64,000 nucleotides of DNA from Pseudomonas phage HHBS36_1. The stretch is from the sequence record PQ287642.1. The stretch is one strand, 5' to 3'. The translations under genes were made by a program, and so were the position numbers. The stretch's first letter is position 1; each line of letters begins with the position of its first letter. The notes under the pieces were generated by a model. That model worked only from the letters and a program-made list of their open reading frames with translations. It was not told the DNA's origin and ran no database searches. Shown piece after piece: positions 5,395-7,016 of this stretch.

Positions 5395-5434
5395 AGCTCC
5401 TACCCGAAGGTAGGAGCTTTATGCCGTCTTACAC
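5395..5434. terminator. Bidirectional hairpin terminator plus CTTTATGCCGTCTTACAC element
   Basis: AGCTCCTACCCGAAGGTAGGAGCT: GAAG tetraloop, A8 tract on the left, CTTTATGCCGTC on the right. Confidence 0.6.
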
Positions 5435-5668
5435 TTGTGCTTCAATCATCATGAAAAGACCACCCAAGAAGAGAGTGATCAGCGCTACGATAGCAGCTCC
5501 CCATATGAGAGCAGTGCAAATCATATTAATGCGGTCGAGCATGATGATATCTTTCTTGGGTAAACGAGTTCGACGAACATCATCGTTATCTTTTACCAGT
5601 TTTGCTACGAACAGGGACCCAGCGATAATCGAAATAGAGATCCACCAGATCAGCATGATGGTTTCCAT
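5429..5668 (-). CDS. Small membrane protein (2 TM)
   Basis: Two hydrophobic helices (IWWISISIIAGSLFVAKL and ALIWGAAIVALITLFLGGLFMM). Confidence 0.5.
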   Translation of the reverse strand: METIMLIWWISISIIAGSLFVAKLVKDNDDVRRTRLPKKDIIMLDRINMICTALIWGAAIVALITLFLGGLFMMIEAQV

Positions 5669-5681
5669 GATTAACTCCTTG

Positions 5682-5942
5682 TTAGTTCATGAGCGTCCAC
5701 GGCGGTAACTGGAGAGGGGTATACACGCTAACCAGGGCCGTAATGATCATTACTAGATAAATCGCAAAGCTAATTGCCCAACTGACGCAGAGGAACATGC
5801 AGAGGTACTTCCAATTAGGAAGCCACTTGCATACACCCATTACGAACAACCACGATACAGCATAGCCAGTCATGATCAATAGTCCAGGAAGGCTAAGTGT
5901 CCCGTAAATAAACGCTATTGGGTTAGTAAACATCAAATCCAT
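5682..5942 (-). CDS. Small membrane protein (3 TM)
   Basis: Hydrophobic segments throughout; packed tightly against its neighbours. Confidence 0.5.
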   Translation of the reverse strand: MDLMFTNPIAFIYGTLSLPGLLIMTGYAVSWLFVMGVCKWLPNWKYLCMFLCVSWAISFAIYLVMIITALVSVYTPLQLPPWTLMN

Positions 5943-5950
5943 GTTAACTC

Positions 5951-6139
5951 CTATTTTGGAAGCATGTCGAATAAATGATATCCACTATAGCCGGTGATAG
6001 CAATAATAACTACGCCAAATAGAACCATAGAGATTCTATCTGAAAAGGTTTTACTGCTAGCTACCAAGCCATAGAAAGTCATTACACCTCCAACCGTAAG
6101 AGAAGCGAAGAAGGTGAGTATCAGTACAATCCATCCCAT
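5951..6139 (-). CDS. Small membrane protein (2 TM)
   Basis: MGWIVLILTFFASLTVGGVMTFYGLV ... MVLFGVVIIAITGY. Confidence 0.5.
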   Translation of the reverse strand: MGWIVLILTFFASLTVGGVMTFYGLVASSKTFSDRISMVLFGVVIIAITGYSGYHLFDMLPK

Positions 6140-6143
6140 GGTA

Positions 6144-6353
6144 TCAACTCAGAAAGATGTTATAAAAGGTTGCCATGATCAAGTATACGGCAAGAAGGAT
6201 TGCTGCCAAAGGACCAGATGCATTGAAAGCTTTAGCCAGTTTAATCGGCAGGTGGTTCGTTTTGACACCCATGACCGCAAGTCCCTGTTTCAGGAAAAAG
6301 ACGATGAACAGAGTGATGATAGCGAAAGCAAATACATTGGTGATAATAGCCAT
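6144..6353 (-). CDS. Small membrane protein (2 TM)
   Basis: Hydrophobic helices; an early promoter copy lies upstream at 6386-6409. Confidence 0.5.
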   Translation of the reverse strand: MAIITNVFAFAIITLFIVFFLKQGLAVMGVKTNHLPIKLAKAFNASGPLAAILLAVYLIMATFYNIFLS

Positions 6354-6385
6354 TACATTGTCCTTTATGTGGGTGTATATTCACA

Positions 6386-6409
6386 GTTGTAATATAGGCT
6401 TTAAATGAA
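6386..6409 (-). promoter_or_regulatory. Early-promoter motif copy
   Basis: TTGTAATATAGGCTTTAAATGAAC; internal to the small-membrane-protein cluster. Confidence 0.5.
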
Positions 6410-6703
6410 CTTAAATGCATATTTGAGATTAGCTGCTGCGAACATAGCAACAGTGAAGAACCCAAATCCAGCGATTAGATAATAACGATACTCTCTCCAG
6501 TGTTTAGGTGTATCGTAGGCATTTGGATCAACTAGTGCATTACCGATACCTAAAACACAGGTACATGCAGCTAGTACACCTGTTGAAATAGCCAGTGCAG
6601 CATAAGGTAGATAGATGTATGCCACAACGGGAATTGCTATAACAATTACCAGAAGGAGGAACATTAGGTTGGGGAAAGGGAGAGCAGCGGGAGATGTATT
6701 CAT
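6401..6703 (-). CDS. Small membrane protein (3 TM)
   Basis: LMFLLLVIVIAIPVVAYIYL, AALAISTGVLAACTCVLGIG and LIAGFGFFTVAMFAAANL. Confidence 0.5.
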   Translation of the reverse strand: MNTSPAALPFPNLMFLLLVIVIAIPVVAYIYLPYAALAISTGVLAACTCVLGIGNALVDPNAYDTPKHWREYRYYLIAGFGFFTVAMFAAANLKYAFKFI

Positions 6704-6713
6704 TTGTAATTCC

Positions 6714-7016
6714 TTAGATGTGGGATGCAGCGATTACGAACATGGTCAGCGTAAAGTAAGCTAATACCAAGTAACATTTCTTTACGAACGTATGGATCAA
6801 TCGGGTCAATGCAATCTCAGAATACTCTATAGACTGCTTTATTAACTTCGGTTTGATGTTCTGTCCGGCTAAACGTAACAAGTGTTTATAGTGCGCCGTT
6901 CTGTACTCCTCACGGAGCTTCAGTTCCAATACATACATCACGACGGTTAATATCGGTGAAACAATAAGTAGGATCACAGGTGACATTTCTATTCCTCTTA
7001 ACGGTATAAAGCCCAC
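6714..7016 (-). CDS. Small membrane protein (N- and C-terminal TM helices)
   Basis: SPVILLIVSPILTVVMYVL and LVLAYFTLTMFVIAASHI; first gene after the terminator at 7010. Confidence 0.45.
   Translation of the reverse strand: MGFIPLRGIEMSPVILLIVSPILTVVMYVLELKLREEYRTAHYKHLLRLAGQNIKPKLIKQSIEYSEIALTRLIHTFVKKCYLVLAYFTLTMFVIAASHI

Follow-up and report, generated by a model that had tools for sequence, protein, structure and literature searches.

A regulatory frame conserved across seven phage genera encloses hypervariable small predicted membrane proteins, six of them in Pseudomonas phage HHBS36_1

The 64,000-nucleotide stretch of Pseudomonas phage HHBS36_1 DNA analysed here (PQ287642.1; hereafter the window) contains six consecutive small genes on its minus strand, designated A to F by position, whose products are predicted to be membrane proteins and which we refer to together as the cassette. 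Read in the direction of transcription, the order is helicase, a hairpin (T1), F, E, an early promoter, D, C, B, A and a terminator (T2); the neighbours are a phiKZ gp75-type helicase on one side and homologues of phiKZ gp76.4 and gp77 on the other. Across seven genera the regulatory frame around this slot is conserved and the small membrane proteins inside it are hypervariable; this combination is what is new here, and we regard it as a modest finding. On balance, we lean towards reading the cassette as an early, accessory, membrane-embedded effector set aimed at the host or at a competitor. A conserved frame whose content turns over between genera is the pattern expected of an arms-race locus, and the cassette represents a short, defined list of phage membrane proteins very probably made within the first minutes. 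It is also a cheap target for exclusion, host-range and counter-defence tests in therapeutic Pseudomonas jumbo phages, and the evidence speaks against its being universal in chimallivirus biology.

The window phage belongs to the genus Pawinskivirus, is PA1C/BRkr-like and is a relative of phiKZ. A 2.1-kb segment spanning the cassette is 99.6–99.7% identical to the Pseudomonas aeruginosa jumbo phages BRkr, phiHQ, phiLBG22, PS119XW and PA1C, and 76.6% identical to HPP-Temi; in the annotated records of these relatives, the six open reading frames (ORFs) are labelled hypothetical proteins. The stretch that follows the helicase was compared across 14 additional genomes. In six more genera, represented by phiKZ, phiPA3, 201phi2-1, Viktualia, Phabio and Psa21, this slot has two to five small, mostly two-helix proteins, and some of these genera carry a soluble protein there too. 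The slot genes include phiKZ gp76, 76.1, 76.2 and 76.3, phiPA3 gp069-072, 201phi2-1 gp132-133, Phabio gp115-119 and Psa21 gp78-82; like the Pawinskivirus six, the slot proteins of these genera are 50–100 amino acids long, mostly with two transmembrane (TM) helices, and are uncharacterised hypotheticals.

The frame common to the seven genera consists of a helicase hairpin followed by TTTAT, an exact copy of TATATTAC, and a strong terminator facing a gp76.4-like gene. Within the slot, TATATTAC lies on the coding strand in an intergenic gap, 25–40 nucleotides before a small membrane-protein gene, and in 8 genomes its core and flanks are found either within the cassette or at its head. A hairpin follows the helicase in every genome examined for it (8/8), and a hairpin also ends the cassette in the six genera other than Pawinskivirus. 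Ahead of the promoter, phiKZ has no gene and Phabio and Viktualia have four, the extremes observed; the slot holds two to six genes in total. These cross-genus occurrences are not independent, as the phages share ancestry.

The proteins inside the frame are another matter. BLAST and Smith-Waterman comparisons with shuffles detected no significant similarity between the Pawinskivirus six and the slot proteins of the other genera. The best cross-genus pairs were C with phiKZ gp76.1, at a z of 5.5 that is marginal and comes from a small set, and B with phiPA3 gp071 (z 3.0); the link between C and gp76.1 was not recovered by phmmer. Even among phiKZ, phiPA3 and the PA1C-like phages, which have the same host, PAO1, the slot proteins are unrelated, whereas the adjacent helicase is 71–84% identical. 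Seven other lineages (Noxifer, RAY, Moabite, SPN3US, OBP, RP31 and Aphrodite1) have soluble proteins after the helicase.

The internal promoter of the window cassette, of the type recognised by a virion RNA polymerase (vRNAP), lies at 6382-6405 on the minus strand and reads TTTAAAGCC-TATATTAC-AACTGT-G, with the core TATATTAC at 6389-6396. The window contains 8 copies of the core where 2.4 are expected. Seven copies on the minus strand, the one at 6389-6396 among them, are preceded by an A/T-rich stretch and followed by AAnnGTG. The same core with similar flanks is found 73 nucleotides upstream of phiKZ chmA, and a dRNA-seq study reported that the primary start site of phiKZ chmA bears the early-promoter motif. 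A preliminary description of this DNA had placed an early-promoter copy inside the cluster, and the enrichment, the shared extended context and the copy upstream of chmA all uphold that assignment. Promoters of phiKZ-type virion polymerases have an AT-rich conserved element of ~10 nucleotides near -10, and the start site is 6 nucleotides after the element (PMC5312081). In the cassette, such an element serves D to A only. Transcription would start at the G at ~6382(-), giving a predicted leader of 29 nucleotides to the D ATG, close to the 31–40 nucleotides typical of phiKZ leaders. A scan for sigma-70 promoters gave matches not above those in shuffled sequences.

Both ends of the cassette are marked by hairpins. 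T1 (7010-7029, minus strand) is a UUCG-tetraloop hairpin directly after the helicase stop, followed by UUUAUACCGU in the manner of a 'hairpin + TTAT' terminator, with a folding energy of -16.9 kcal/mol (z -3.6). T2 (5395-5418, both strands) is a 10-bp UUCG hairpin followed on the minus strand by a U-run and on the plus strand by TTTATGCCGT (-23.5 kcal/mol, z -6.3); by these features, it is a strong two-way terminator common to the cassette and the convergent gp76.4-like gene. The core of the UUCG-tetraloop hairpin, CCTTCGGG, occurs at 15 sites in the window against 1.3 expected (5403, 7016, 12151, 15957, 24951, 30258, 31952, 41032, 41612, 47222, 48103, 49263, 50147, 53257 and 63929), with 13 of the 15 on the minus strand, which holds most window genes. 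These hairpins look like a genome-wide terminator family resembling that of phiKZ, whose terminator motif is 'hairpin + TTAT' (PMC10914365) and matches the T1/T2 family. Folding energy and family membership thus confirm the bounding terminators that had been proposed. An Rfam scan of 4800-7600 returned one sub-threshold match, on a terminator.

This arrangement does not treat the six genes equally. Only 23 nucleotides separate the T1 hairpin from the F ATG, which leaves no room for a promoter, so F and E are predicted to be reachable only by read-through of T1. The earlier proposal that the cluster lies under early promoters consequently stands for D, C, B and A, but does not hold directly for F and E, which lie upstream of the internal promoter and would depend on read-through. 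[quoted passage not shown] It is likely the promoter of an nvRNAP-helicase operon, and read-through from that operon would supply F and E.

Published phiKZ data illuminate the timing of the slot. In RNA-seq at 2 min post-infection, gp76, 76.1, 76.2 and 76.3 stand at 274, 169, 174 and 362 units, compared with 166 for chmA and 12.5 for the helicase; by 10 min the same four genes climb to ~490–980, and gp76.4/gp77 remain at ~4–7 throughout (PMC10914614). With levels 14- to 29-fold that of the helicase at 2 min, phiKZ gp76-76.3 are therefore immediate-early. Given the conserved vRNAP-type promoter and these positional counterparts in phiKZ, D to A are very probably immediate-early too, as the preliminary description had it; for F and E, early expression is plausible by extension. 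A phiKZ transposon screen recovered 2–4 insertion sites in each of gp76-76.3, with hundreds to thousands of reads, and none in gp76.4 (PMC12676376). The tolerated insertions indicate that phiKZ can probably do without these four genes on PAO1 in rich medium.

The membrane character of the products was assessed by calling TM segments as 19-residue stretches with a Kyte-Doolittle mean of at least 1.6 and assigning topology by the positive-inside rule. Each cassette protein has two to three hydrophobic segments, in agreement with the preliminary description, and GRAVY values are 0.6–1.4. In a crude gene call of the 64-kb window (~74 ORFs), only the cassette ORFs have at least two hydrophobic segments; the chance of six among 74 being contiguous is ~4e-7 by our own arithmetic, and since all six multi-helix ORFs are adjacent and none occurs elsewhere in this set, the clustering is far beyond chance. 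Lysine and arginine residues of A, C, D and F are nearly all in the inter-helix loop (8, 2, 4 and 11 residues, respectively), and the termini of these four have none, except for one lysine in the C-terminal tail of C. With positive charge confined to the loop, the prediction is that the loop is cytoplasmic and that both short ends lie outside. An AF2 single-sequence model of F (pLDDT 81.6) has a helix at 3-40, a turn and a helix at 46-89, forming a long helical hairpin, and a Foldseek search of the PDB with this model returned generic hairpins only (E-value at least 3). Hydropathy, charge distribution and the modelled hairpin of F together support the idea of a membrane-protein island, and we strongly infer that the A to F products are inner-membrane hairpins. 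In A, C, D and F, the loops are better conserved than the helices (for C, 0.88 vs 0.55); as the best-conserved parts, they are probably the working surfaces.

Individually, the six minus-strand genes have distinct features. Gene A (5429-5668; 79 amino acids, two TM helices, an AAGGAG ribosome-binding site upstream) has a K/R-rich loop of 27 amino acids (8 K/R) that is near-invariant, with 2 substitutions over three lineages, and a C-terminal tail that is invariant across the same lineages. Gene B (5682-5942) encodes 86 amino acids; its hydrophobic helices number two to three, and the loop CKWLP.WKY.C is invariant. Gene C (5951-6139; 62 amino acids, two TM helices) starts 4 nucleotides past the D stop, with no obvious ribosome-binding site in the sequence, and its translation may be coupled to that of D (6144-6353; 69 amino acids, two TM helices, a basic loop of 27 amino acids). 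Gene E (6401-6703) encodes 100 amino acids with three hydrophobic helices and a conserved 21-residue loop, PN..DTP..WR.YRYY; its final codons overlap the AT-rich upstream portion of the internal promoter. The product of gene F (6714-6986; 90 amino acids) has its TM helices at both ends, at 4-22 and 72-90, and between them a K/R-rich middle of 49 amino acids predicted to be a cytoplasmic helical hairpin. The six ORFs were found where the preliminary description had put them, apart from the start of F. That start had been set at GTG 7016, which is disfavoured because it lies inside the T1 terminator hairpin; ATG 6986, with an AGAGGA ribosome-binding site and in agreement with the 273-nucleotide coding sequence (CDS) annotated in PA1C, is most likely the true one. 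The GC content of the cassette is 0.40–0.45 against 0.43–0.48 in the flanks, and a foreign origin was rejected on the grounds of this closeness.

Substitution patterns indicate that all six are genuine coding genes under purifying selection. In comparison with HPP-Temi, dN/dS is 0.08 for A, 0.04 for B, 0.12 for C, 0.12 for D, 0.13 for E and 0.35 for F, and in A to C, read in the minus frame, substitutions are far more frequent at codon position 3 than at position 1, and more frequent at position 1 than at position 2. A third, Pawinskivirus-like lineage, represented by a metagenomic Logan contig (L018, SRR24994200, 1.6 kb), keeps E, C, B and A. On this contig, B starts at the second ATG (83 amino acids), and at 183-400 the D homologue is split into two frames by a 1-nucleotide deletion, which would be either a loss of D or an assembly error. 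Two antisense ORFs, 5421-5708(+) and 6114-6392(+), are longer than A and D, which they overlap, and a length-based gene caller prefers them over the real genes. We rejected them as genes on the grounds of an atypical pattern of substitution, the lack of a ribosome-binding site and an orientation opposed to the frame of promoter and terminators. The one opposite A (5421-5708+) is also open in HPP-Temi; such ORFs stay open because they and the sense frame have third codon positions in common.

Amino-acid identity to HPP-Temi is 89% for F and 65% for D. Across the 10 kb compared, no genes evolve faster than C, D and E, at 65–68% amino-acid identity vs 85–98% for the flanking genes; conservation over that 10 kb is lowest in the stretch from C to E, at 64–69% nucleotide identity. 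Synonymous divergence differs sharply within the cassette, with a dS of 0.14 for F and 1.2–2.3 for A to E. Patches of 96–100% nucleotide identity to HPP-Temi were seen at 6768-6967, in gene F, and at 8364-8563, in surroundings of 64–90%. These patches suggest recent recombination between the two lineages, or constraint at the nucleotide level in F.

Database searches returned almost nothing beyond the genus. PHROG, Pfam, PADLOC and NCBIfam searches with all six proteins gave nothing above noise; the best PADLOC match, D with PbeC (E-value 0.019, 11.5 bits), is itself at noise level. Sequence searches of the PDB with F and E found no match. A tblastn search with the six proteins concatenated against 50,697 phage records hit 7 Pawinskivirus records only, each in one place, and there are therefore no paralogues elsewhere in the Pawinskivirus genomes; nor was paralogy detected among the six cassette proteins. 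In a protein database of 5.8 billion clusters, E and F matched only themselves and B matched only BRkr and one 83%-identical Logan contig, and phmmer of C against 1.84 billion representatives recovered only its own fragment. Three-lineage profiles of A and B, run against IMG/VR, had no hits. By these searches, the cassette proteins are genus-restricted orphans, found in the 7 Pawinskivirus records and one metagenomic contig.

Taken together, these observations suggest how an early effector set could operate from this locus. The injected virion RNA polymerase would start at TATATTAC, at ~6382, and make a D-C-B-A message of ~1 kb that would end at the 5395-5418 terminator, as the motifs and the phiKZ data indicate; F and E would be expressed more weakly, from transcripts that read through the helicase terminator. 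Inserted in the cytoplasmic membrane, the products would leave their short ends outside and keep their basic loops on the cytoplasmic side, which is consistent with the distribution of charge. Enzyme motifs are absent from the cassette proteins, and they would bind other membrane-embedded proteins, not substrates. Their partners would be fast-evolving, because the frame is kept over seven genera and the proteins are unrecognisable even between phages of the same host. Two classes of partner could fit: the ejection proteins of competitor phages, and variable membrane-acting effectors of host defence. That the set is accessory is argued by the lack of outside homologues and of family matches, the fast divergence, the variable gene number, the soluble proteins that seven other lineages carry in the slot and the tolerated insertions in phiKZ.

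Several points weigh against this reading. The phiKZ slot genes are positional counterparts whose homology to the cassette is not demonstrable, the predicted topology is based on hydropathy and charge, and for F and E the early timing is something we infer. We found no mention in the literature of PHIKZ076, of phiKZ gp76-76.3 or of the Pawinskivirus genes. In the accessible part of the phiKZ Grad-seq protein tables, gp76.4 is the only protein among the 076 entries listed, an absence tempered by the fact that small hydrophobic proteins are hard to detect. Six different proteins exceed what known exclusion systems need. Finally, chimalliviruses can co-infect one cell and form separate nuclei, so that any exclusion is not absolute.

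If the cassette is an effector set, the leading specific mechanism, which we put forward tentatively and by analogy, is superinfection exclusion of the kind mediated by T4 Imm and HK97 gp15. The preliminary description had named exclusion among the possible roles, and it stays plausible. The T4 Imm protein (9.3 kDa), which is made early and sits in the inner membrane with its N-terminus in the periplasm, blocks genome entry by binding the tape-measure protein, and HK97 gp15 has been proposed to act like it. By this mechanism, the cassette would block the membrane-inserting ejection proteins of later-arriving phiKZ-like phages. As predicted for the cassette products, T4 Imm and HK97 gp15 are early inner-membrane proteins of ~80–100 amino acids with several helices, and T4 Imm is phage-specific and non-essential; size, hydrophobic helices and charge distribution of the cassette proteins fit the Imm type, with topology assigned by the positive-inside rule only. 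However, the known systems use one gene where the cassette has six, and the route of entry differs, being through a membrane vesicle in this case. Searches of Pfam, PHROG and NCBIfam with the six proteins gave no Imm-family homology above noise, no likeness in sequence or profile to T4 Imm or HK97 gp15 was detected, and no exclusion phenotype is known for any chimallivirus.

Ranked second is counter-defence, which we consider doubtful: the proteins would act as membrane-embedded anti-defence factors, resembling colicin immunity proteins, that neutralise pore-forming or membrane-sensing effectors (Juk, or DinC of Dionysus) attacking the early vesicle. Host defences aimed at the early vesicle are just beginning to be described; in P. 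aeruginosa, Dionysus and Juk have been reported to attack it with TM or pore-forming proteins. The immediate-early timing of the phiKZ counterparts also fits, as do the apparent dispensability of the phiKZ slot genes on the laboratory strain PAO1 and the rapid turnover and variable gene number, which are typical of arms-race loci. Colicin immunity proteins are likewise small multi-helix inner-membrane proteins, highly specific and fast-diverging, and they neutralise an incoming pore-forming domain within the membrane. In contrast to the cassette, they are plasmid-borne and constitutive; they have no sequence similarity to the cassette proteins, and no cognate toxin is known here. Two further points count against counter-defence: neither PADLOC nor any other search gave a family match, and we met no precedent in the literature for a small TM anti-defence protein.

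A related proposal concerns location. The cassette proteins may sit in the membrane of the early vesicle or in the surrounding inner membrane, where they would either, as immunity factors particular to each lineage, shield the vesicle from pore-forming defences such as Juk and Dionysus or serve as vesicle-to-nucleus conduits or hand-over factors; we think this improbable. If it were true, their divergence would reflect co-evolution, either with variable defence effectors or with the proteins that each lineage itself injects.

Modulation of conserved inner-membrane machines of the host (divisome, transporters, pili, lipopolysaccharide polymerase or YidC/Sec) is also unlikely. Such host takeover would suit proteins that are small TM hairpins, have conserved loops and lack enzyme motifs, and it would agree with the early timing and the apparent non-essentiality of the phiKZ counterparts in rich medium. 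There are analogues in SPO1 gp56 and the Iap peptide of phage D3, and in the bacterial small-protein regulators AcrZ and MgrB. Like the cassette proteins, D3 Iap and SPO1 gp56 are small hydrophobic phage peptides that bind inner-membrane proteins of the host; unlike them, they are single genes, have conserved host targets and show no similarity to the cassette. Conserved targets should keep effectors more constant, which disfavours host takeover: the slot proteins of phages that share PAO1 as host have no detectable similarity, although their helicases are 71–84% identical.

Core components of the early vesicle or of the hand-over to the nucleus, such as nucleotide or mRNA channels or factors for membrane remodelling, would make sense of membrane proteins being made early by a phage whose infection starts within a lipid vesicle, and a review states the vesicle channels to be unidentified and lists the mechanism of vesicle formation and genome transfer as open. 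We nevertheless consider a core role very unlikely. The cassette proteins are not conserved across Chimalliviridae, nor even within the phiKZ-like Pseudomonas phages; they have no homologues beyond Pawinskivirus, and the slot of seven other lineages holds soluble proteins. The phiKZ counterparts tolerate insertions, and proteins of this kind would be made only once the vesicle already exports mRNA. The preliminary description had seen in the cluster a possible contribution to the early vesicle or to re-organisation of the envelope; as a core function, this is disfavoured by the restriction of the proteins to one genus, by the soluble slots and by the tolerated insertions. Least probable is a role in lysis timing, whether as holins of class II, as pinholins or antiholins, or as a device that inhibits lysis: class II holins and pinholins share the size (65–95 amino acids) and the two TM helices, but they are late genes beside an endolysin or spanin and have N-in topology, whereas the cassette has an early promoter, early transcription in phiKZ, a predicted ends-out topology, no endolysin or spanin nearby and no match to a holin family, and phiKZ has its lysis cassette (holin, spanins and endolysin) at gp141-144, with gp142 shown to be the holin.

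Two observations concern the slot in other phages. In Viktualia (L016), the ORFs at 5396-5629 and 5630-5854 are adjacent paralogues (40% identity, E-value 7e-12), both related to 201phi2-1 gp132 (L003, 6186-6419); from these tandem paralogues it follows that the cassette grows by tandem duplication. In phiKZ (NC_004629), an unannotated ORF of 21 codons at 70376-70441 (L007, 2377-2442) encodes MKKKLIMITIVVIAYKLWEWK, which has a hydrophobic core. It lies between the early promoter and PHIKZ076, overlapping the gp76 start by ATGA, and may be a micro membrane peptide or a leader ORF.

The gp75-type helicase upstream of the cassette is split in the window into two ORFs, 8131-8568(-) and 7034-8191(-), by a 1-nucleotide deletion relative to HPP-Temi that falls within the Walker-A codons. 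The break, at 8152-8158(-), falls on G GGA AAG, a canonical -1 slippery heptamer that stands in the correct register and is the one used by lambda G/GT. The split may represent a programmed frameshift, or a split or decaying gene. Two CDSs are annotated under the helicase in 5 PA1C-like records, from four phages, and a sixth record, phiLBG22, is unannotated. A simulated -1 shift yields a protein of 511 amino acids with TGKGKT intact, the length expected from the 1,536-nucleotide CDS of HPP-Temi.

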